Part shown: in pieces, positions 3,405 to 25,415 of the stretch
Numbering within the stretch: the first letter of the stretch is position 1
Layout of the letters: every line of letters starts with the position of its first letter
Source: a virus
Lineage: Duplodnaviria; Caudoviricetes
IMG/VR virus record: IMGVR_UViG_3300033076_000586
Coordinates: 1 to 29,881 of that record
Strand: one strand, 5' to 3'
DNA length: 29,881 nt
The notes under the pieces: model-generated
Told to the model about the DNA's origin: nothing
Seen by the model: the letters and a program-made list of their open reading frames with translations, nothing else
Databases searched by the model: none
Translations under genes and position numbers: made by a program

Positions 3405-3775
3405 TAGTTCGCTCCTACCGGTTGCCATTTGCCGTTCACGTCTTTGACCGACCTGGTCGTGGTTTTCCGATCAAAGTCGACGCAAGAGCGGATATCGCCC
3501 TCTTCGTTGAACTTACATACCAGCCGACCTATTAATTTTCCGTCTAGGTTCTCGATCTCGTGCATCGACATATCGACGCCGTTGTATTTGGCGATAATCG
3601 CCCTGGTGCAGATCCGGTCTTCCGGCTCGCAAAGCCGAATAACGGGGTTTTTGCCGCCGTTCTGCCGGATGGCGCGCTCGGCGTGAGCTTTAACCAATTG
3701 CGCCCAATCCTCGTTTTTACCGGCATGAGCGGGCGAGCAGGCTAAAATCAAAGCTAAGAAGGCAATCCGTCGCAT
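3404..3775 (-). CDS. secreted/periplasmic protein with signal peptide
   Basis: MRRIAFLALILACSPAHA signal peptide; four Cys in the mature part; AGGAG SD. Confidence 0.75.
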   Translation of the reverse strand: MRRIAFLALILACSPAHAGKNEDWAQLVKAHAERAIRQNGGKNPVIRLCEPEDRICTRAIIAKYNGVDMSMHEIENLDGKLIGRLVCKFNEEGDIRSCVDFDRKTTTRSVKDVNGKWQPVGAN

Positions 3776-3802
3776 CGGAATTTCTCCTGGGTAGTCAGCC
3801 TA

Positions 3803-4018
3803 TTACCATTGGCCGTTCTGTTGCTGCTGATATTGGTGGTATCGAAGCTGTTCCTGAGACTGTTCCTCAAGGCGGCGCATATTCTCCCGCATATGGTCAA
3901 TCGTTCGCTCGTTTTCGTAGTTGTCGCTGTTGTAGTAGCGGCAATTCGACCCGTAGCAGTTCGCCGAGGCGGCGGTCGAGGTGAAGGCGATCAAGGCAGC
4001 AAGGATAAGCGTTTTCAT
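3803..4018 (-). CDS. small secreted protein with signal peptide
   Basis: MKTLILAALIAFTSTAASA signal; CxxxxC; Q-rich tail. Confidence 0.7.
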   Translation of the reverse strand: MKTLILAALIAFTSTAASANCYGSNCRYYNSDNYENERTIDHMRENMRRLEEQSQEQLRYHQYQQQQNGQW

Positions 4019-4209
4019 TTCGACTGCTCCTGTAGTTCAGCAAGTTTCTTGCTGTTCTTGTAAATCATCATTTTGGCAATCTCGACCCCGTGGCGCTTTA
4101 CTGCTGGCGTGACGGGCTTTCCGTCAGGTCCAAAGCCGCTTTCGATCTGGCGGATCGTCGCTTCCCAGGCGGCTATTGATTCCTGAAGCTGGGCGATGTC
4201 GTATTTCAT
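4015..4209 (-). CDS. hypothetical protein
   Basis: GGAG SD; ATGA coupling to the next gene. Confidence 0.6.
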   Translation of the reverse strand: MKYDIAQLQESIAAWEATIRQIESGFGPDGKPVTPAVKRHGVEIAKMMIYKNSKKLAELQEQSK

Positions 4210-4212
4210 GGC

Positions 4213-4446
4213 TTACTCCATCACAATGCAAAGACCAAAGCCGCCGGCGGTCATGCCGTCGAGGATGTCGTGCTTGTCGCACTTGGCCATTCCCCAGGCG
4301 ACTTTGAGGCAATAGCCAATGTCGCGCAGCGGGGTGTGGGGCGGCTTCTGGCCGACAGAGATAAACTGCCGATCGCGGAGCTTCTGCTCGCGGACCAACG
4401 CATTCGCTTTGGCCATGATCTTCGCGATGTTGTAGCGGATGGTCAT
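4213..4446 (-). CDS. hypothetical protein, first gene of leftward early operon
   Basis: ATG at 4446 has a GGAG SD (the track starts at GTG 4455); directly downstream of PL. Confidence 0.6.
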   Translation of the reverse strand: MTIRYNIAKIMAKANALVREQKLRDRQFISVGQKPPHTPLRDIGYCLKVAWGMAKCDKHDILDGMTAGGFGLCIVME

Positions 4447-4474
4447 TTGCGTCACTCCGTCGTTCGATGTCCTA

Positions 4475-4503
4475 AGTTATAAACGAAAAATCGTAGCTGT
4501 CAA
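4475..4503 (-). promoter_or_regulatory. PL-like sigma70 promoter with operator in the spacer
   Basis: TTGACA-N17-ATAACT (or N16-TATAAC) on the minus strand; spacer contains the ACGA-N4-TCGT palindrome at 4483-4494. Confidence 0.75.
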
Positions 4504-4507
4504 CAAG

Positions 4508-4545
4508 AAAAAGGGGCGGCGAAATTTTGTTTTGCGCCCGCCCCC
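4508..4545 (-). terminator. intrinsic terminator downstream of cI
   Basis: GGGGCGG(G)CG...CGCCGCCCC stem followed by TTTTTCTT on the minus strand. Confidence 0.6.
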
Positions 4546-4571
4546 AAATCGGTTATTGATTCGTTACCGCT

Positions 4572-5063
4572 TTATTTGTGCTGGGGCTTGGCTAATGATT
4601 GAGAAAATCCTGAAGGAAAGAATCCGCGAGCTATCGTCAGCCCCTGAATACGGCCAAGATACTGCATATTGCCCGCGCCATCGGGCGGCGGTGCTTCGGC
4701 GAATTCTCTGCAAATTGCAAGGAGTTCAGCCGACTCTTCGCGATCTAGCCCTAGACGCTCTAGAACCCCCGAAACGATATAGCAAAGACGATCAAGAAGG
4801 ATCGCTGCACTAGGCGCTACGACCGGCGAGCTAGGGAATTTCGGCCCCTGGCCCGTCATCAGCCATTTCTCGGTCACGCCTAGGGCTTCGGCAAGCTCAT
4901 ATATAATGGAGGTGCGCCTGGCCTTCCCGGTCTCGATGCTGCTAATCGTCGAAACGCCGCAGCCGAGCGTCGGATTGATTCGCCGAATCTCGTCAGACAA
5001 TCTACGCTGATCCCAGCCTCGCCCCGCGCGAGCTTCCGCCACGCGGCTACCTAGAGTTGACAT
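4572..5063 (-). CDS. CI-like repressor (XRE HTH) without S24 peptidase domain
   Basis: LGSRVAEAR...STISSIETG...ELAEALGVTEKWLMTGQG; AAGGAGG SD; divergent from the cro-like gene. Confidence 0.85.
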   Translation of the reverse strand: MSTLGSRVAEARAGRGWDQRRLSDEIRRINPTLGCGVSTISSIETGKARRTSIIYELAEALGVTEKWLMTGQGPKFPSSPVVAPSAAILLDRLCYIVSGVLERLGLDREESAELLAICREFAEAPPPDGAGNMQYLGRIQGLTIARGFFPSGFSQSLAKPQHK

Positions 5064-5178: not shown

Positions 5179-5388
5179 ATGACGAAAGACGAAGCCTTTA
5201 GCAAAGTCGTTGAAATCCTTGGCACTCAGGCCGAGCTTGCGCGCTTGTTGAATGCCCGTCAATCTACTGTGTCGTATTGGCGGATAACCGGAATTCCCGC
5301 CGAGCAGGCGGTAGAGCTTGAGAAGGCGAGCGACGGTCGAGTGCCGCGCTGGGTTTCTCGCCCAGATCTATGGGAGCCAAGGCTATGA
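5179..5388 (+). CDS. cro: Cro-like (YdaS-family) transcriptional regulator
   Basis: GTQAELARLL...STVSYW...IPAE...LEKAS.G.V....SRPDLW signature; divergent from cI. Confidence 0.85.
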   Translation: MTKDEAFSKVVEILGTQAELARLLNARQSTVSYWRITGIPAEQAVELEKASDGRVPRWVSRPDLWEPRL

Positions 5389-5575: not shown

Positions 5576-5908
5576 ATGAGGAAAGAATACCAAAGTCAGT
5601 GGAGGCGAGAATTCCTTGAAAAGAACGGGCATTCTCATAGCAAAGCATGGAATAAAAATAACCCAGAAAAGCGCAGGGCTCAGAAAATGGTAGAAAACCA
5701 CCTAGCAAGAGGAAAGCTTGAAAAAATGCCTTGCGAACGCTGCGGATCTTCAGTGAATGTCCATGCCCACCATGACGATTATTCGCGGCCTCTGGACGTG
5801 ATGTGGCTTTGCGCCAAACATCACAAAGAGCGCCACAAAGAGCTTCGCGCTGGCTCTCCTCCTCTGCAGCGCGAAGAAACGCCTGCCCTTGGCGTTTCCC
5901 CTCCCTAA
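5576..5908 (+). CDS. HNH-like Zn-binding protein
   Basis: CERCG...HAHHDDYSRPLDVMWLCAKHHKERH motif. Confidence 0.75.
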   Translation: MRKEYQSQWRREFLEKNGHSHSKAWNKNNPEKRRAQKMVENHLARGKLEKMPCERCGSSVNVHAHHDDYSRPLDVMWLCAKHHKERHKELRAGSPPLQREETPALGVSPP

Positions 5909-5911
5909 ACT

Positions 5912-5939
5912 CCCCGGCGCTTCGGCGTCGGGGCTTTTT
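5912..5939 (+). terminator. intrinsic terminator (tR1-like)
   Basis: CCCCGGCGC-TTCG-GCGTCGGGG followed by CTTTTT. Confidence 0.8.
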
Positions 5940-6162
5940 AGGCAAGTTTCACGAGACTTCCCCCTTCAAATGTGTTTATCGCATCGCGCATTTTTGAGGG
6001 CTGTTTGGGTAGCAGGTGGAGGGGGGCGCGGGAATATCCCCCCAGTTATTCAGTTTCGGGCGGCGCTTTGACGCCCGAGGCCTCGGATCGAAGACCAGTC
6101 GGTTCGGGGAATGCGCAAAGATCGGGTTACTTCGTCGTGGTTGCTAATGCGATCTAAGCGCG

Positions 6163-6199
6163 AGGGGGCGGTAGGTGGGAGCCAGCCGCCCCCTTTTTT
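6163..6199 (+). terminator. intrinsic terminator before rusA
   Basis: AGGGGGCGG/CCGCCCCCT stem followed by a T run. Confidence 0.75.
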
Positions 6200-6213
6200 A
6201 TGAGGTATTACGA

Positions 6214-6591
6214 ATGCTCGGCAGAGAAGAAAAAGAAGTCGTCATGCTTGACCTGCCGCCGCCAATCTCAACGAACGATATCTGGACGCCAGTCCGCCGC
6301 AAGGCCGGCTTCGCCCAAATGGTTCGCTCTAAGAAATATTTGCAGTGGGTCTCTGACGCTGGCTTTATGATTAACGCGCAACGCCCAGGAATGGTAAGCG
6401 GGAAATTCTCATTTCGCCTGCAAGTTACACGCAAAAGCAGGGTCGATCTAGATAACGTTTTGAAGGCCACGCTTGATCTATTGCAAAATCAAGGAATTAT
6501 CTCGAATGATCGCAAATGCGAGGAAATACAAGTCAAGCGCGCAGACGTTGACGGAATGCGCTGCACAATTATAGCAATTAAGGGGGAATAA
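6214..6591 (+). CDS. rusA: RusA-family Holliday junction resolvase
   Basis: LPPPISTN, RVDLDNVLKATLDLLQNQGIISND motif; GAGG SD before ATG 6214. Confidence 0.85.
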   Translation: MLGREEKEVVMLDLPPPISTNDIWTPVRRKAGFAQMVRSKKYLQWVSDAGFMINAQRPGMVSGKFSFRLQVTRKSRVDLDNVLKATLDLLQNQGIISNDRKCEEIQVKRADVDGMRCTIIAIKGE

Positions 6592-8038: not shown

Positions 8039-8283
8039 ACGATCAGCGTTTTTATAGCCTTGTGGATCTCATGGAAGCGACGAATAAGGCTTGCGATATA
8101 TCTGCCCCAGGTCGAGACCTGATCTGTTACGAGGCTCGGCAGTCAATCAATAACGACGGGAATCGGGATTATTCCGTGTTTATCAAAAACGCCAGCCAAG
8201 ATGACCTGGATTTACAGAATCTAATAATGAAGATTTTGCACGATCAAGGGTTTCATGGCGTTGAAGTCGTTACGGAATGGTGA
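8035..8283 (+). CDS. hypothetical protein
   Basis: ATGA overlap; GGAG SD. Confidence 0.65.
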   Translation: MNDQRFYSLVDLMEATNKACDISAPGRDLICYEARQSINNDGNRDYSVFIKNASQDDLDLQNLIMKILHDQGFHGVEVVTEW

Positions 8284-8294
8284 TTTGGTGATAA

Positions 8295-8606
8295 ATGACG
8301 ACTAAAAACACCGGCGATTTATCACCAAGGCGCGAATTTGACCAGCTTTCCGAGCTAGCGGCGCTCTGGAAGTCGCGGGGCTACGACCGGAAGCCGGTCA
8401 ATTCTGCGACGACGGATCGATTCTGCGAGATTTGTCTAGTTCAGGCTCGCCGGCAGCAGGTGGATTTCCCGATCCTGGCCACTATTGCTGTAAACGATGC
8501 TAATGGCGTGGAACGCTGGCTCTGTGTTTCGCATGGCGAAATGGCGCTGAAAAAGAGGGCTGAGCGCCTACGACAGAGCGCTTGCCAAAACGGTGGAATG
8601 GTGTAG
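8295..8606 (+). CDS. hypothetical protein, possible Zn finger
   Basis: CEIC...CVSH; GGTGA SD. Confidence 0.6.
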   Translation: MTTKNTGDLSPRREFDQLSELAALWKSRGYDRKPVNSATTDRFCEICLVQARRQQVDFPILATIAVNDANGVERWLCVSHGEMALKKRAERLRQSACQNGGMV

Positions 8607-8711
8607 GTTTGGAGGTGGCGGGAGCGAGACGCAATACCAACCTCGCTCCCAACCGGTGGCCTAAAGCGTTACCAGCGCTTTTTGGCGCGCCATCACGAAG
8701 GCTCAATTCGC

Positions 8712-8993
8712 GTGGCAAACGAAAATTTAACATCACTTGACGAAAAAGACAATCCCCTAGGCATGGAAGGCTTAGAGGTTTTAGCGGCTGATTACGCCCA
8801 GAACCTCAAGCGTGACTATTCCTTTGCCTGTTACGAGGCGATGTCTTTTGCCGCCATCTGTCGCCAGCAAATCGAGCTAGGCGATCACGAGGGCGCTTTC
8901 CATTCGACGCAACGCTTCCAGAAAGCTGCAACTGAGGTTTGCCGGCTGATGCGTCGTCTTGACTCACATCAAAAGCGGGAGGGCGTCAAATAA
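8712..8993 (+). CDS. hypothetical protein (start uncertain: TTG 8682, GTG 8712 or a later ATG)
   Basis: Co-oriented ORF; GAAGG upstream of GTG 8712. Confidence 0.55.
   Translation: MANENLTSLDEKDNPLGMEGLEVLAADYAQNLKRDYSFACYEAMSFAAICRQQIELGDHEGAFHSTQRFQKAATEVCRLMRRLDSHQKREGVK
8724..8752 (-). promoter_or_regulatory. candidate antisense promoter
   Basis: TTGTCT-N17-TAAATT with TGn extension on the minus strand. Confidence 0.45.
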
Positions 8994-9460
8994 CAGTTCT
9001 CTGTCTTGGGCTAAGCTTTACCGTATGGGGCCCGGCGCAGAGACCGCGATTGCGATAGCGCCGACTGAGCTTGCTGCACCCGAGACCGACCGGCTTGCGA
9101 CACAATGACGGAACGAACGCCATACCAAACTTGGGTGTCTTTACTGACCCTTTCCGCACCCCGGCCTAGAGCCGGATATCCGTCACTAGGGGCCTCCGCG
9201 CCCCACTTTGCCGCAAATACCTATACCCGAAGCCGGGGGATATACGAGGCTGGCACGCTGGAGTGGTTCACCATAGGGGCTGCAATCCCTAGACGAACAT
9301 GACGGGTAAACGAGGGCAAAAACTGAGGGGTAGCGTCCCTCCCGCCGCAGCGATGGTTCGGGCAGAACGCCCAGCGGCTAAACCGGTATACGCCCTCCTA
9401 GTATGGGAGGCATCGTATAGCGGAAAGGGTCCCTATTGTCTTGTGTTAGAGGAGCTTGAA
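8994..9460 (+). ncRNA. large structured non-coding element (ncRNA or origin), family unknown
   Basis: Perfect 12-bp long-range helix 9146-9157/9420-9431 enclosing several nested hairpins; no convincing gene. Confidence 0.5.
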
Positions 9461-9661
9461 ATGCCTAGTGATTTACCAGAAGACGAAGGGTTGGTTGTCC
9501 CTCATCAAAGCGCAGTTTACGTTTTTCGGAACCAAGCCGGCGGGATTACGATACGAGAGGAGCAGGCCGATGGTGACGCATCGTTTGTGTCGTTCAAGGA
9601 CGAGTATGCGGAAGCGATAATTGATGCAATTCGGAAGGTAGCACGCCATCGACAGCGATGA
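9461..9661 (+). CDS. hypothetical protein
   Basis: GAGGAG SD before ATG 9461 (MPSDLPE...), preferred over the track start at 9299. Confidence 0.65.
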   Translation: MPSDLPEDEGLVVPHQSAVYVFRNQAGGITIREEQADGDASFVSFKDEYAEAIIDAIRKVARHRQR

Positions 9662-9984
9662 GGTTCCGTGGGATGAGTGAATTTAAGCTGGCCAGTGACG
9701 CCGACGCGCCAGACGTCGAGATAGACCGCGCGCGCCGTCTGTTACGAGATGGCGAAATCAGCACGGAAGATTTTGGATGGCTGATGGGTTACGTCGACGA
9801 TCAGGCCGAAGTCCCGTTCCACCGCATGACGCAGGCTCAGAAGCGGCGTTATTTCGCCCAGCGGCGACAGGCTGATTTGTTTGGGCCGGCTGGGGCTCGC
9901 AAGCGTCGGCGTCGTAAGGCAAAGTCTAGCTCATTGATAAGGCCGGAATTCTGGTCTGGAACGCAGGTGGAAGTCGCGAAATGA
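9658..9984 (+). CDS. hypothetical protein with Arg-rich C-terminus
   Basis: ATGA overlaps at both ends. Confidence 0.6.
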   Translation: MRFRGMSEFKLASDADAPDVEIDRARRLLRDGEISTEDFGWLMGYVDDQAEVPFHRMTQAQKRRYFAQRRQADLFGPAGARKRRRRKAKSSSLIRPEFWSGTQVEVAK

Positions 9985-10355
9985 CGTTGCGGGAAGAAAT
10001 AGCCGCTCTAATGGATAAGGGCGTGAGCCAAGGGGAAATCGTCCAGCTTATCCGCAGAGACCATCCAAACACCAGGCCGCATCGTATCCGTGAGCTTTAT
10101 GGGACGCTGATGGGTCCTGAATATTCCGCGCAGGTGAAGGCTGAGAAGGAAGCCAAGAAGCTCCAGCCCGTCGCCAAGCCCGAAAAGCCGAAGCGATATG
10201 TCGTCGAGGATCCTGAGACTGGTCAGAAGAAGATTTTCAAGGAGGTTCTGGTCGGCCTCCAGGGCTTTGACCAGACGGCTAACAATGGCGGCGGCGTGCG
10301 TAAGATATTGATAAGCCTGCCTTATGTTGCGTGGATAGATCGGGAGGAGGTTTAA
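9981..10355 (+). CDS. hypothetical protein, probable N-terminal HTH
   Basis: EIAALMDKGVSQGEIVQLI; translationally coupled. Confidence 0.65.
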   Translation: MTLREEIAALMDKGVSQGEIVQLIRRDHPNTRPHRIRELYGTLMGPEYSAQVKAEKEAKKLQPVAKPEKPKRYVVEDPETGQKKIFKEVLVGLQGFDQTANNGGGVRKILISLPYVAWIDREEV

Positions 10356-10357
10356 TA

Positions 10358-10549
10358 ATGGCTGAAGAAACGCTTCTGAGCGCGTCCCGCCGGGCTGTAA
10401 GGTTCTTTGATATCGATATGTCGAAGGGCGGGGTTATCACCGAAGAAACGGAATACGCCTTCCACGTTCTGCGTCGGGAGGTGGAGCGGGCGGCGCTACG
10501 GGATAAAATCGAGCAGCAGCGGCGCGAGCGCGTTTCGGGGGATAAATGA
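10358..10549 (+). CDS. hypothetical protein
   Basis: GGAGGAGG SD before ATG 10358. Confidence 0.65.
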   Translation: MAEETLLSASRRAVRFFDIDMSKGGVITEETEYAFHVLRREVERAALRDKIEQQRRERVSGDK

Positions 10550-11055
10550 TGCCGCAGATATCTCCACCGCATCGCTACGCCAACGGGCGCAAAAAGCGAG
10601 CGTCTAGGGCCGTGGATAGGCTCAACGAGGCGAATGCGGATGATATGGCTAGGGCCATGGCTACCGCGCTCAGCGGCCCTCACAGGCGCGGCAATAGCGA
10701 CCCTCTATGCGAAAGCCCGATAGGTCGTTTCGTCCTGAGGTTCTCGCTCGCCAGGGAATGCGCCGATGCGGCGTTGCTCTACGGCGACGTGACGGGCAAA
10801 TGGCGGGCTGCGATCCTGGCTCCGACACCTGATCGGATTGGCGGGAGCGGGGCTGAGCCCGACGAGGCGCTGGTTAAACGCTGGGAAGAGGATTTGTCGG
10901 AGTGGCGCCGGGCGATGCTGGATGGCGGGGGGAAACGCGCGCGAATACAATGCGACGCGATGATTTTGGACCTTATGGAATTCTCCCCCGGATTCGACTT
11001 CCAAGGCTGCGTTAGTTGCTTGATTTCATTGGCAAAAGCGCAGGGTAAATTATAG
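10546..11055 (+). CDS. hypothetical protein, possible late-transcription regulator (DUF6456-like)
   Basis: Last early gene before the late promoter (Q position); ESPIGR motif resembles DUF6456 proteins from memory. Confidence 0.55.
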   Translation: MMPQISPPHRYANGRKKRASRAVDRLNEANADDMARAMATALSGPHRRGNSDPLCESPIGRFVLRFSLARECADAALLYGDVTGKWRAAILAPTPDRIGGSGAEPDEALVKRWEEDLSEWRRAMLDGGGKRARIQCDAMILDLMEFSPGFDFQGCVSCLISLAKAQGKL

Positions 11056-11900: not shown

Positions 11901-12068
11901 ATGAAGGGTAAGTCACCGAAGGCTGTCGAAAACAGCATGTATCACAACAAGGCTGATCGGAAGGCGGATAGCGTTTCGACGCCTAAGCCTAAGCGTGGCG
12001 ATAGCCGGTCAAAGCAGACCATGGGCAATATTAAGCCACAGGCTCCTTGTGGGAAATTTCACGGATGA
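11901..12068 (+). CDS. 55-aa basic protein (not in ORF track)
   Basis: AAGGAG SD; MKGKSPKAVENSMYHNKADRKADSVSTPKPKRGDSRSKQTMGNIKPQAPCGKFHG. Confidence 0.65.
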   Translation: MKGKSPKAVENSMYHNKADRKADSVSTPKPKRGDSRSKQTMGNIKPQAPCGKFHG

Positions 12069-12523
12069 AAACTGGTCCAAAGCCCAAGGCCGTTTTGGAT
12101 CTATTTAACCGTAACTTTATCCCGGAGCCAAATTCAGGGTGCTGGATTTGGACTGGGCCAACAAAGCAGCATGGATATGGAAGGCTAAACCTTAGGCATA
12201 GGGGTCTTGGGCAGCCTGCCGCGCATAGACTGGCGTATCAGTTGTATTGTGGCGAGATCGGCGATGAGCTTCACGTCTGCCATAAGTGCGATAATGTGCT
12301 GTGCGTAAACCCAGACCACCTTTTTCTTGGGACTAGAAGCGACAACTTGAGCGATGCTGCTAAGAAGCGTAGGTTAGCTACTCATAAGCTTACCGCTGAG
12401 CAAGTTGCTGATATTCGCTCAAAACGCATGAGCGAGTCAAAGTTTGCGGCTCTTTACGGTGTTAGTAGAGGGTCTATAAACGATATTCACCGCGGAAACT
12501 CATGGGGATGGTTAAATGGCTAA
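12065..12523 (+). CDS. HNH homing endonuclease with C-terminal HTH
   Basis: PEPNSGCWIWTG...AHRLAY...VCHKCDNVLCVNPDHLFLGTRSDN. Confidence 0.9.
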   Translation: MKTGPKPKAVLDLFNRNFIPEPNSGCWIWTGPTKQHGYGRLNLRHRGLGQPAAHRLAYQLYCGEIGDELHVCHKCDNVLCVNPDHLFLGTRSDNLSDAAKKRRLATHKLTAEQVADIRSKRMSESKFAALYGVSRGSINDIHRGNSWGWLNG

Positions 12524-13102: not shown

Positions 13103-14385
13103 CGATCCCTTATAAGCCTCGAGAGCAGTTCCAGACTTTCCATGATCGGACGCAGCGGTGGTCTTGCATTGTTGCGCATCGCCGTGCTGGCAAGACGACG
13201 GCCTGCATTAATGATCTGTTGCGTTCGGCGATTAATTGCCAGAATGATCGTCCTCGGTTCGCATATATCAGTCCATTGCTGAAGCAGTCCAAGGACATTG
13301 CCTGGGACGCTTTGAAGGCATATGCGGCTCCATTGAAAGCGATAGGAGCGGAATTTAATGAAAGCGAGCTTAGAGTTGATCTCCCTAGCGGCGGTCGCAT
13401 ACGTATTTATGGGGCTGATAACCCTGATAGCCTCCGGGGCATTTATCTCGATGGTGTGGTTATCGATGAGCCGGCGCAGATCCGCCCGAGCCTCTGGACA
13501 GAGGTTGTTCGCCCGGCGCTGAGTGATAGGCAAGGCTGGGCGGTGTTTATCGGCACGCCAAATGGAAAGAACGAGTTTTACGATATCGCCGAGCGCGCCA
13601 AGGCCAGCGACGAATGGTTCTATCTACAGCTGAAAGCCTCGGAAACCGGGCTGATAAGCGCCGACGAGCTCTACGACGCTCGCCAGCAAATGGGCGAGGA
13701 TCGCTATGAGCAAGAATACGAGTGCTCGTTTGAGGCGGCTATCCAAGGCTCCTTCTACGCCGACGCTCTCAAGCGAATGCGGGAAGAGGGCAGGCTGGGA
13801 CGGCTTCCAATTGAGCGAGCCATTCCTGTTTATACCGGATTCGACTTGGGGATTTCTGATTCGACCGCCATCTGGTTCGTCCAAGTGGTTGGGAAGGAAA
13901 TTCGGCTTATCGACTACGAGGAATTTTCTGGCGTCGGGTTTGAGCATTACGCAAAGGTGCTACGTGACCGCGGTTACATATACGGCAGTCACTATTTCCC
14001 TCATGATATTGCTGTTAGGGAGCTTTCTAACGGCGTTAGCCGACTGGAAACGCTTCGCGGATTTGGGATCGGCGATATCCAAGTCGTTCCGCAGCATAAC
14101 GTCCTCGACGGAGTGAATGCGGTTCGCCGGATGCTGGATCGTTGCTGGGTTGACGAGACGCGCTGTAAGCGGGGCTTGGAATGCCTATGGCAGTATCGTC
14201 GCGAATGGGACGAGAAGAATAGGATCTGGAAAACCAATCCCTTACATGACTGGACCAGTCATGGCGCGGACGCGCTACGATATTTCGCAGCTGGATTCGT
14301 CGAGCCGCAACTGAAAACTGCGGCTGATCGCTGGGCTGATTATGGGAAGGGAAAGACTGGCGGTGCATCGTGGCTGACTGCCTGA
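13093..14385 (+). CDS. terL: terminase large subunit
   Basis: Walker A HRRAGKT, Walker B GVVIDE, FIGTPNG, nuclease FDLG and SHGADALRY. Confidence 0.95.
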   Translation: MQLTIPYKPREQFQTFHDRTQRWSCIVAHRRAGKTTACINDLLRSAINCQNDRPRFAYISPLLKQSKDIAWDALKAYAAPLKAIGAEFNESELRVDLPSGGRIRIYGADNPDSLRGIYLDGVVIDEPAQIRPSLWTEVVRPALSDRQGWAVFIGTPNGKNEFYDIAERAKASDEWFYLQLKASETGLISADELYDARQQMGEDRYEQEYECSFEAAIQGSFYADALKRMREEGRLGRLPIERAIPVYTGFDLGISDSTAIWFVQVVGKEIRLIDYEEFSGVGFEHYAKVLRDRGYIYGSHYFPHDIAVRELSNGVSRLETLRGFGIGDIQVVPQHNVLDGVNAVRRMLDRCWVDETRCKRGLECLWQYRREWDEKNRIWKTNPLHDWTSHGADALRYFAAGFVEPQLKTAADRWADYGKGKTGGASWLTA

Positions 14386-14843
14386 CCTACGAAGAAGCGC
14401 ACAAGGCGTTCAGGTATGACCCTGAGACCGGCAAGCTATTCCGCCAGGCTGGCAAGTTTGCCGGCAAAGAAGCTTCTTCTTGGTGCGCAAGAGGATATGG
14501 CCACGTTTGGCACGGCAAGCATTATTTTACGCATCGCATCATTTGGCTGATGCACTATGGAGAGTTCCCTGTCGGAGAGGTCGATCATATCGATTTAGAC
14601 AAGGGAAACAATAGGATAGAAAATCTTCGGCAAGCGACAAAATCGCAGAATCAGGCTAATGTCCCTGGCCGCATTCGTGGCAGGCTGAAGGGTGCAAGCC
14701 AACTGAATGGTAAATGGCGCGCAAAGATCAAGGTTCGTGGCAGATACCTGTTCCTTGGATACTATGCGACCGAGCAAGAGGCTCACGAAGCTTACAAGCG
14801 CGCCGCTATCAAGCATTTCGGCGAATTCGCAAGGGCCGCATAG
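14370..14843 (+). CDS. HNH homing endonuclease with AP2-like domain
   Basis: YDPETG...HRIIW...VDHIDLDKGNNRIENLR.AT.SQN; KWRAKI...LGYY.T..EA..AY. Confidence 0.9.
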   Translation: MADCLTYEEAHKAFRYDPETGKLFRQAGKFAGKEASSWCARGYGHVWHGKHYFTHRIIWLMHYGEFPVGEVDHIDLDKGNNRIENLRQATKSQNQANVPGRIRGRLKGASQLNGKWRAKIKVRGRYLFLGYYATEQEAHEAYKRAAIKHFGEFARAA

Positions 14844-20316: not shown

Positions 20317-20464
20317 TGGTGAGATCTCACCGCGTCGGGCGGCTTCCCGACTTCGACAGCTCTGCGATAGAGGCTAAATGTCTGATATGTCTGAAGATTT
20401 TGCGGCAAGCTACACTCCCGAGGAAAAGAATTATCTTGATACGAAGGGTGGTGAGATCTCACCG
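20317..20464. repeat. two identical 16-nt copies TGGTGAGATCTCACCG with a 14-bp palindromic core
   Basis: Copies at 20317-20332 (intergenic) and 20449-20464 (inside the scaffold gene). Confidence 0.9.
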
Positions 20465-21334: not shown

Positions 21335-21363
21335 TTTACAGGTTCTGCGCTCTAAGGCATAGT
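21335..21363 (+). promoter_or_regulatory. candidate sigma70 promoter
   Basis: TTTACA-N17-CATAGT immediately after the scaffold stop. Confidence 0.45.
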
Positions 21364-21400
21364 AACGGCGCTCCGAATAGAGCGCGTGGGGAGACTCACC

Positions 21401-21438
21401 AAGCCGCCAATCCATGGCAGTGGGTTGGCGGTTTTTTG
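21401..21438 (+). terminator. intrinsic terminator
   Basis: GCCGCCAATCCAT-GGCA-GTGGGTTGGCGGT followed by a T run. Confidence 0.75.
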
Positions 21439-21466
21439 TTATCAAATTCAGAAGGATTGCGGGCGG

Positions 21467-21802
21467 ATGATTAAGGAATTCCGGGACAAGGCGTTCGCTC
21501 TCGTCACTAGGGCGCACAATGCGCATTTGTCGACCGATTCCTATGCCCAGCACGTAGCTCTCGGCGATTTCTATTCGGCTTTGGAAGACAAGGTGGACGA
21601 TATCGTCGAGACCTACCAGGGCTGCTATGGGAAGCTCGATAGCCCGGACAATAGCGTTAAAGACGCGATTGCCGAGATGGCTAATTGGGTTGCGGCGCAC
21701 AAGGACGAAATCGCCCAAGAAAACGATATCGTCGAGAACCAGCTGGACGAGCTTGGCGCTCTCTTCGCTAAAACCTATTACAAGCTAACCCAACTTAAGT
21801 AG
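21467..21802 (+). CDS. ferritin/Dps-like four-helix protein (DUF5856-like)
   Basis: AHNAHL.T.SYAQH.ALGDFY..L...VD..VE.YQG.YG...T.YKL..L motif. Confidence 0.75.
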   Translation: MIKEFRDKAFALVTRAHNAHLSTDSYAQHVALGDFYSALEDKVDDIVETYQGCYGKLDSPDNSVKDAIAEMANWVAAHKDEIAQENDIVENQLDELGALFAKTYYKLTQLK

Positions 21803-22283
21803 GCTTAGAGTATTCGCCCCAATGTTCTTTGGCGGCGTCGCAATATGCTTGGCGGGCAGATTGAGGGCTATCAAATAGACCTAAATATTTCCCGCCAAGT
21901 CTAGCCATATACCTGTTTTTTGTTACCTGTCTAACTCCTTTAAGCCCTGATGTGTTGTTTTTTGGCTTTTTTTGGTTGCCCTGATTTTGAGAAAAGGTTG
22001 AGGGGCGAAGATTTCTCCAACAATTATTCCACGGGTTGCCATCAATGTGGTCGATAACGTCTGGGACTTCTCCAGTCATCCATAGGAAGGCTAGGCGATG
22101 GATATAGTAATGCCTTTGTCCGACTACAGCGAAAAGATATCCATTCCCAGCCAAATGGCGTTGTATGGTTTCGTTCTTGTGGCTCTTTTTGTCGAATCGG
22201 TAACATTCCCCCGTCCATGGGCTATATGAGAAAAGTTCTCGGATTTCAGATTGGGTGAATGGTATCGGTAGAGGTTTTGCCAT
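21795..22283 (-). CDS. HNH homing endonuclease (antisense to the late operon)
   Basis: HRLAF...IDHIDGNPWNNCWRNLR..T.SQN...NNTSGLKGV...YLGLF; AT-rich. Confidence 0.9.
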   Translation of the reverse strand: MAKPLPIPFTQSEIRELFSYSPWTGECYRFDKKSHKNETIQRHLAGNGYLFAVVGQRHYYIHRLAFLWMTGEVPDVIDHIDGNPWNNCWRNLRPSTFSQNQGNQKKPKNNTSGLKGVRQVTKNRYMARLGGKYLGLFDSPQSARQAYCDAAKEHWGEYSKPT

Positions 22284-24669: not shown

Positions 24670-25173
24670 ATGGCATATACTGGCACTTTTGACGCGACGA
24701 AAGATCAGCTCGTCAGGGTCAATTCTTTTACGACCGGAGCCGTCACGACGGTTACGGATTCGACGGTTACTCTCACTCAGGCTTCTCATGCGGGCGGCGT
24801 CGTCGTCCTGGCTCGAGCGGCTGGCGTGACGGTTACTCTCCCGGCTGCGACTGGCACGGGCGACATCTACCGCATCATCATCGGCACGACGGCGACGAGC
24901 AACGCCAACATCGTCAAAGTGGCGAACGCCACTGACGTGATGAACGGCTCACTTGCTCTGCAGCAGGACACGGACTCGGCGGGAACGCTGAAGCTGTGGG
25001 CGGCTGCCGATAGCGATGACACGATGACGTTTGCTGGCGCCGCCACGACGGGCGGCACGGTTGGCGCGTTCATCCAGTGCGTCGATTACAAGGCTGGGTT
25101 CTGGTCCTGCCAGGCTTGGACGAAATCGAGCGGCGGCGCGGAAGCGACCCCGTTCTCGGCGACTGTTTCCTAA
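24670..25173 (+). CDS. virion structural protein
   Basis: T/A/G-rich; TVTLPAATGTG motif; ends ATPFSATVS. Confidence 0.7.
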   Translation: MAYTGTFDATKDQLVRVNSFTTGAVTTVTDSTVTLTQASHAGGVVVLARAAGVTVTLPAATGTGDIYRIIIGTTATSNANIVKVANATDVMNGSLALQQDTDSAGTLKLWAAADSDDTMTFAGAATTGGTVGAFIQCVDYKAGFWSCQAWTKSSGGAEATPFSATVS

Positions 25174-25415
25174 TGTCGCTACAAGCATGGTTTTGGCTTT
25201 CGAGCCATTACCCGCTTTTTGAAGAGCCCCCGGCGCCGGTTGCGGTCATTCCGCGGCCGGTTTCGCCTATCAAGTCCGGGAAGCTTTCAGATGCTGATGT
25301 CGCGGAAATAAAGCAATTGCGCGCACAAGGCGTTATTCTGCGCGAGATTGCTGAGCGGTTCGGGGTGTCGGTTCCGGCAATCCACCACGTCGTTAAAGGC
25401 AGGAAGCGGAAATGA
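25173..25415 (+). CDS. small HTH protein (resembles HNH C-terminal DNA-binding domain)
   Basis: KLSDADVAEIKQL...LREIAERFGVS..AIHHVVKG; TAATG coupling. Confidence 0.6.
   Translation: MSLQAWFWLSSHYPLFEEPPAPVAVIPRPVSPIKSGKLSDADVAEIKQLRAQGVILREIAERFGVSVPAIHHVVKGRKRK

Follow-up and report, generated by a model that had tools for sequence, protein, structure and literature searches.

The phage record and the gap at 8994-9460

The window, by which we mean the whole 29,881-nucleotide stretch of DNA analysed, is an entire linear IMG/VR record (completeness 63%), and Pfam and PHROG matches to its genes give it the layout of a lambdoid temperate phage. The left operon encodes HNH, SSB, Erf and RecE-like exonuclease proteins, the repressor lies on the minus strand (4572-5063), and Cro (5179-5388) is followed by RusA, GcrA and small uncharacterised genes, then by terminase, portal and capsid. 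GcrA and the best portal matches, to Rhizobium phage RHph_Y1_10 and Paracoccus phage KLEP18-1, indicate an alphaproteobacterial host; the related contigs described below come from aquatic and freshwater runs. The early operon ends in a conserved 169-aa gene (10546-11055, plus strand), by its position a likely late activator, which served as the anchor for our comparisons. Five HNH-type or endonuclease-like genes are present in the 30 kb (312-671, 5576-5908, 12047-12523, 14370-14843 and 25077-25415), and enzymes of this kind could drive module exchange.

Between a conserved 93-aa gene (8712-8993, plus strand) and the Shine-Dalgarno (SD) sequence of the next gene lies the intergenic module considered here (8994-9460, plus strand). 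The first-pass annotation had placed the next genuine start just beyond it, and this was borne out: the SD, GAGGAG, occupies 9449-9454 and the ATG stands at 9461, together opening a 66-aa gene (9449-9661, plus strand) in whose place relatives have other sequence. The upstream protein, 71-82% identical in four relatives, is predicted to form a helical hairpin, a shape that resembles Rop; identity with Rop was rejected, as what matched were generic helical hairpins (best E 0.73), with no significant fold match, Rop included. Three ORFs span the gap (8959-9108, 9105-9302 and 9299-9661), with ATGA overlaps at both junctions. Two copies of TGTCTTG, at 9002-9008 and 9437-9443, flank the element as a 7-nt direct repeat that might be accidental or mark a site of exchange. 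Further upstream, the start codon of ORF 8295-8606 sits inside a perfect 12-bp inverted repeat (8285-8328), and relatives differ upstream of 8330, near this repeat.

ARAGORN finds no tRNA or tmRNA in the gap. The covariance-model search that the first-pass annotation had proposed matched no family: Rfam 15 gives 0 matches at gathering score in the window, and the only entry reported for 8900-9550 is sucC, at E 8.4. Readings as a group I or II intron, RNase P, tmRNA, retron or riboswitch were accordingly dropped. A MITE was also rejected, as the sequences flanking the closing helix differ, leaving no target-site duplication, and the element is single-copy in the record.

Predicted fold of the gap RNA and its strength

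Every stem named in the first-pass annotation lies where it had been placed. Helices P1, P2 and P3 and most inner hairpins are common to the minimum free energy and centroid folds of 9140-9436, which together predict a multi-branched RNA domain of 286 nt (9146-9431, plus strand) closed by P1, a perfect 12-mer helix (9146-9157/9420-9431) whose 3' end is 17 nt before the SD. The plus-strand stems nest inside P1 without conflict. They comprise the 5-bp hairpin P2 (9161-9175, pair probability 0.96); P3 (9177-9185/9300-9308, one G-U pair), with hairpins 9189-9204 and 9274-9291 inside it (0.90, 0.84, 0.82); a hairpin at 9325-9341 (0.59) with TAGCGT (9331-9336) in its loop; a branched helix at 9344-9378, formed by 9344-9348/9374-9378 (outer, 0.71) and the inner stem 9360-9363/9369-9372; and a bulged hairpin stacked on P1 (9387-9419; 0.94, 0.98). 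A possible 6-bp pseudoknot on the same strand, 9207-9212/9315-9320, is indicated by complementarity, and both of its putative strands are unpaired in the centroid fold.

The gap RNA had also been proposed to switch between conformations through a second TGACGGA, and folding of successive prefixes retains this as a transient, predicted only for transcripts ending at about 9210-9300. In these, 9106-9112, within the first copy of ATGACGG (9105-9112, plus strand), is predicted to pair with 9179-9185 until 9300-9308 has been made, when the second copy (9299-9305) displaces the first.

The description 'densely structured' is too strong: the whole gap folds no better than its shuffles (z -0.50 on the plus strand, +0.14 on the minus), and only the P1-closed core folds modestly better. 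For the core (9146-9431) z is -2.0 on the plus strand, with 7 of 200 shuffles as good, and -2.41 in a second run; on the minus strand it is -1.5 to -1.9. The 5' part of the gap (8994-9145) carries no folding signal (z +0.25). This modest excess is mostly due to P1, since the two halves of the core folded separately reach z -0.85 and -1.28. Among 1182 windows of this length in the record the core comes 12th, and then only with its ends set on P1; windows shifted 50 nt off it give z -0.2 and -0.7. Because the regression z of this ranking (-3.5) is inflated relative to direct shuffling (-2.4), we use the rank alone. Five perfect 5-bp hairpins in the core have P = 0.078 over 2000 shuffles, and the ensemble diversity is unremarkable, 20% of 150 shuffles being as low. 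Perfect inverted repeats of at least 12 bp within 400 nt occur at four places in the window, P1 being one, and the pairing probability of P1 is 1.0 when 8994-9460 is folded versus 0.19 within 8800-9660. Elsewhere in the record, the late region has a perfect 14-bp inverted repeat and windows among the record's best-folding (20318-20463 and 21346-21931), and the left operon has a 12-bp inverted repeat spanning 235 nt together with its own best-folding minus-strand windows (1293-1527 and 546-881).

Relatives of the gap and the missing initiator

Eight public runs, chosen by shared 31-mers, were aligned to 8200-10400 at 80% likeness, and the stretch 9458-9605, where contig cover is absent, was left out as evidence of absence. 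Seven pieces that cover parts of the gap, drawn from five runs in four studies, differ at 12 of 869 letters (about 1.4%), and no indel within the gap is among the differences listed for these contig pieces. One contig, from run X2, covers 8867-9447 with 26 differences and 0 gaps and then leaves the alignment at 9447; the upstream gene accounts for at least nine of its differences, over 127 nt, and the gap for at most 17, over 454 nt; of the 11 listed, the two within the gap are at 9025 and 9029. The flanking genes occur in several versions 13-19% diverged as well as in near-identical ones. Contigs depart at 9443-9447, 12-16 nt past P1, into a different downstream gene, and one relative turns to a different sequence at 8983, which makes the module look swappable. 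The alignments fit a conserved, swappable module; the same pattern would follow from a recent transfer, and the near-identity is also biased by the choice of runs through shared 31-mers.

The homolog collection that had been called for yielded near-identical copies only, with no diverged homolog in any collection searched. DNA searches of INPHARED phages and PLSDB plasmids found none, nor did the gapped pattern of P1 in IMG/VR, spaced seeds taken from the open frames of the gap and run against IMG/VR and JGI metagenomes, or blastn, nhmmer and local alignment in the fetched comparator loci. Two genome samples (401 and 401) gave 20 and 1 short matches, none extendable; the nine opened lie in or resemble coding genes (carB in six), and the others are 23-43 nt long. 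Scans with the neighbouring proteins reached no locus containing the gap, two of the loci having too little upstream DNA. Among the public runs listed as carrying it there was no RNA data set, which has no bearing on its expression. The literature searched, mainly openly readable papers and in part represented by portions of them, describes neither the element nor an RNA-primed origin in a lambdoid phage.

Temperate phages of this layout normally need an initiator protein and an iteron origin. The operon had been described as lacking replication genes, and for the window this holds: no initiator, helicase or primase profile matches. Profiles made locally from comparator phages for initiators, primase-polymerases and helicases gave 0 matches in the window, and a PHROG search at E up to 1 found no replication family among 27 small ORFs. 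In the comparators the picture is different. Of ten loci with a RusA match, nine have an initiator-family gene downstream, full-length in seven (L002, L016, L017, L018, L037, L098 and L099, the last two apparently one phage) and represented by its C-terminal part only in two (L121 and L169; phrog_270); L012 has a similar short protein with no PHROG match. In L221, L193, L198 and L250 a few small genes separate the initiator from the downstream homolog of 10546-11055, and in L111 an initiator lies just upstream of an end-of-operon gene that belongs to another family; many genome matches to the 10546-11055 gene are decayed remnants with no replication gene. The gap stands three to four small genes before the 10546-11055 anchor, within the interval that holds the comparators' initiators; we infer its exact slot, because the genes directly beside it lack homologs among the comparator loci. 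In L250, L037 and L137, what looked like gaps proved to be initiator genes and were discarded. In L121 (3521-4045) and L012 (39915-40379) the sole initiator-like protein is short, with the usual N-terminal part missing.

A terminally repeated relative, G004, with a portal 65% identical, bears on the part of the phage that the record lacks. Its HNH protein matches that at 312-671 of the window (32%), and beyond it lie excisionase, integrase, small genes and endolysin; in the G004 region (L261) no replication family was found in the 12 ORFs scanned of the 22 listed. This gene content suggests that the missing part of the window record is probably also free of replication genes.

Candidate roles in replication and regulation

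The gap is a plausible candidate for a non-coding RNA module in a phage without the expected initiator. Our preferred reading, held tentatively, is that it may be the primer RNA of a transcription-primed origin run by host enzymes in an initiator-less temperate phage. The case for an origin or primer role is one of position and analogy. It draws, among other things, on the initiators that comparators have in the same interval, where none was matched in the window, and on the near-identity of copies of the gap with swappable ends. ColE1 replication proceeds through DNA polymerase I and restart-type helicase loading. By analogy, the gap would be read through from early operon transcription and the transcript would fold stepwise, the 9106/9179 pairing first, P3 next and P1 last; an RNA-DNA hybrid might then persist near the transcript 3' end, host RNase H and DNA polymerase I would process and extend the primer, and restart-type helicase loading would follow. 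The folded primer RNA would so replace initiator and iterons. The ColE1 primer RNA has a six-G tract, whereas the gap has no G6 run, its longest being a G5 at 9235. Neither strand of the gap has a consensus promoter, in a scan that misses weak alphaproteobacterial ones, and no antisense unit was seen in it. It also contains no AT-rich unwinding stretch (at most 55% AT in 40 nt), no DnaA box, no CtrA box and no iteron-type features, its repeats being two-copy and 9-12 nt long.

By the features tested, the gap is not a member of the Rfam families or of the ColE1, Ceduovirus or ssoA origins; at best it would work like the Ceduovirus c2 origin transcript or ColE1 RNA II, being neither. Ceduovirus origins are described as non-coding, with over 90% likeness inside a type but dissimilar from one type to another; they can sustain a plasmid in the absence of phage proteins and are proposed to start via transcription (PMC7150918). 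Like those of c2, bIL67 and 923 (transcript PE1-T), the gap appears non-coding and is near-identical among relatives. The Ceduovirus origins lie in lytic phages at the early/late boundary, between promoters PE1 and PE2, and were shown to drive plasmids; in contrast, no promoter was found in the gap, and the window phage is temperate, alphaproteobacterial and known from sequence. The gap has no sequence match among INPHARED phages. ColE1 and MRB plasmids are initiator-free and use a folded pre-primer RNA, and unrelated RNAs can share the mechanism (PMC6380287). The gap RNA resembles ColE1 RNA II in its predicted transcription-coupled refolding; no initiator is matched in the window, a record 63% complete. 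The gap differs in showing no antisense RNA I unit, six-G tract, Rop-like match or dedicated promoter, and, unlike RNA II and RNA I, has no similarity to PLSDB plasmids or Rfam. The gap is also like GOLLD, ROOL and other Rfam phage motifs in being a gene-free, multi-branched RNA candidate within a phage operon, and unlike these in having no noteworthy Rfam match and a fold that comes from prediction.

Were the gap a primer, the mechanism of ColE1/MRB plasmids and of the lactococcal phage c2 would extend to lambdoid phages, and phage genomes without any replication gene could be explained. Only slightly less likely is that the predicted RNA is real but has a job other than replication, either as a processed small RNA or as a cis-acting leader or antiterminator for the downstream genes. 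The well-defined core fold, the predicted transcription-coupled switch, the 17 nt between P1 and the SD, near-identity of relatives up to the SD region and the lack of origin-type marks in the gap would all suit this. Such a role sits less well with element ends that have neither promoter nor terminator, with the absence of an Rfam family and with the persistence of the element while the downstream gene differs among relatives, and it would leave the missing initiator unexplained. Even so, a regulatory RNA here would still be a candidate outside Rfam.

We think it unlikely that the gap is intergenic DNA, neutral or decayed, in which a 12-bp inverted repeat arose by chance and which a recent exchange among phages has spread. 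That would account for the whole-gap z of -0.5, the four comparable inverted repeats, the hairpin count and the ordinary ensemble diversity, but 467 nt is long for so packed an operon, the contig pieces come from four studies with about 1.4% divergence and no listed indel, and the stems nest within P1 without conflict.

The claim that the gap is non-coding is supported for two of its ORFs, whereas a third scores like a gene. Under a codon model built from 13 long genes, 22 accepted genes score -0.24 to +0.31 per codon; 9105-9302 (-0.35) and the gap part of 9299-9661 (-0.34) fall below all of them, whereas 8959-9108 (-0.07) lies inside their range. With a minus-strand ORF, 9011-9220, scoring -0.06, the 5' part of the gap, which holds 8959-9108, may therefore code. 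That the gap as a whole is a series of small genes linked by translational coupling (8959-9108, 9105-9302 and 9299 to about 9455), or the relic of such a series, is quite improbable. The ATGA overlaps and the score of 8959-9108 speak for it, as does a gene caller's choice of 9299-9661 (120 aa) on the window contig, but this 120-aa form clusters with no other protein, and two relatives interrupt it with an in-frame TGA, after 9443-9447 where the contig ends are loose. The 65-aa gap ORF is absent from the same protein collection. Neither 9105-9302 nor 9299-9460 has an SD or a Pfam or PHROG match, and tblastn found no relative of the gap ORFs in IMG/VR or JGI metagenomes (the JGI query being the minus-strand frame). 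Moreover, both ATGA junctions sit in the repeated ATGACGG that pairs with 9179-9185.

Least probable, and very unlikely, is a folded single-stranded DNA signal (single-strand initiation or primosome assembly) serving recombination-driven or rolling-circle replication: the gap folds as DNA at z -2.25 (plus) and -1.85 (minus), has several hairpins like ssoA origins, carries in the loop at 9331-9336 the hexamer TAGCGT, which equals CS-6 of ssoA (PMC4598088), and belongs to a phage encoding Erf, RecE-like exonuclease, SSB and RusA, but this 6-nt sequence, the only look-alike of such a signal in the gap, occurs five times on the plus strand of the window, at chance frequency, the best RS-B match is 10 of 17, the fold relies on G-U pairs, and no rolling-circle Rep or dso was found.

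Returning to the primer reading, one comparator offers a possible parallel. In L169 a gene-poor gap of 554 nt (3709-4262, folding z -2.71) ends at the SD of the 135-aa, C-terminal-only initiator (4263-4670). With rather little confidence, we suggest that alphaproteobacterial lambdoid temperate phages can give up an O-type initiator gene in exchange for a swappable cassette of folded RNA that primes replication with host enzymes, L169 being an intermediate state. Homology between the two gaps was tried and rejected: forward scores have P 0.42 and 0.07, with an unremarkable rank among 9850 control windows, and one reverse-strand score (P 0.015) disappeared under stricter scoring. Inspection of L169 by eye suggested a reverse-strand promoter and terminator resembling oop; this was likewise rejected, as the scan did not call it. 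The 5' 150 nt of the L169 gap alone fold at z -4.3, and we regard this gap as a candidate on its own account.

A second gene-free stretch of the window, 5909-6213, between the HNH gene and RusA, could compete with 8994-9460 for the origin role, given its better folding (z -4.2 for 5900-6215, with 0 of 100 shuffles as good) and the G6 run at 6021. It consists of a row of hairpins, with a strong terminator-like one at 6163-6200 just before the RusA SD, and has no Rfam or phage match; we regard it as a candidate small RNA, attenuator or origin. At its upstream edge, 5878-5948 looks like a suhB/MmgR-like small RNA (E 0.006; 25.8 bits, where the gathering score is 41), and a similar stretch was seen by eye after cro in L121, at about 1160-1215.
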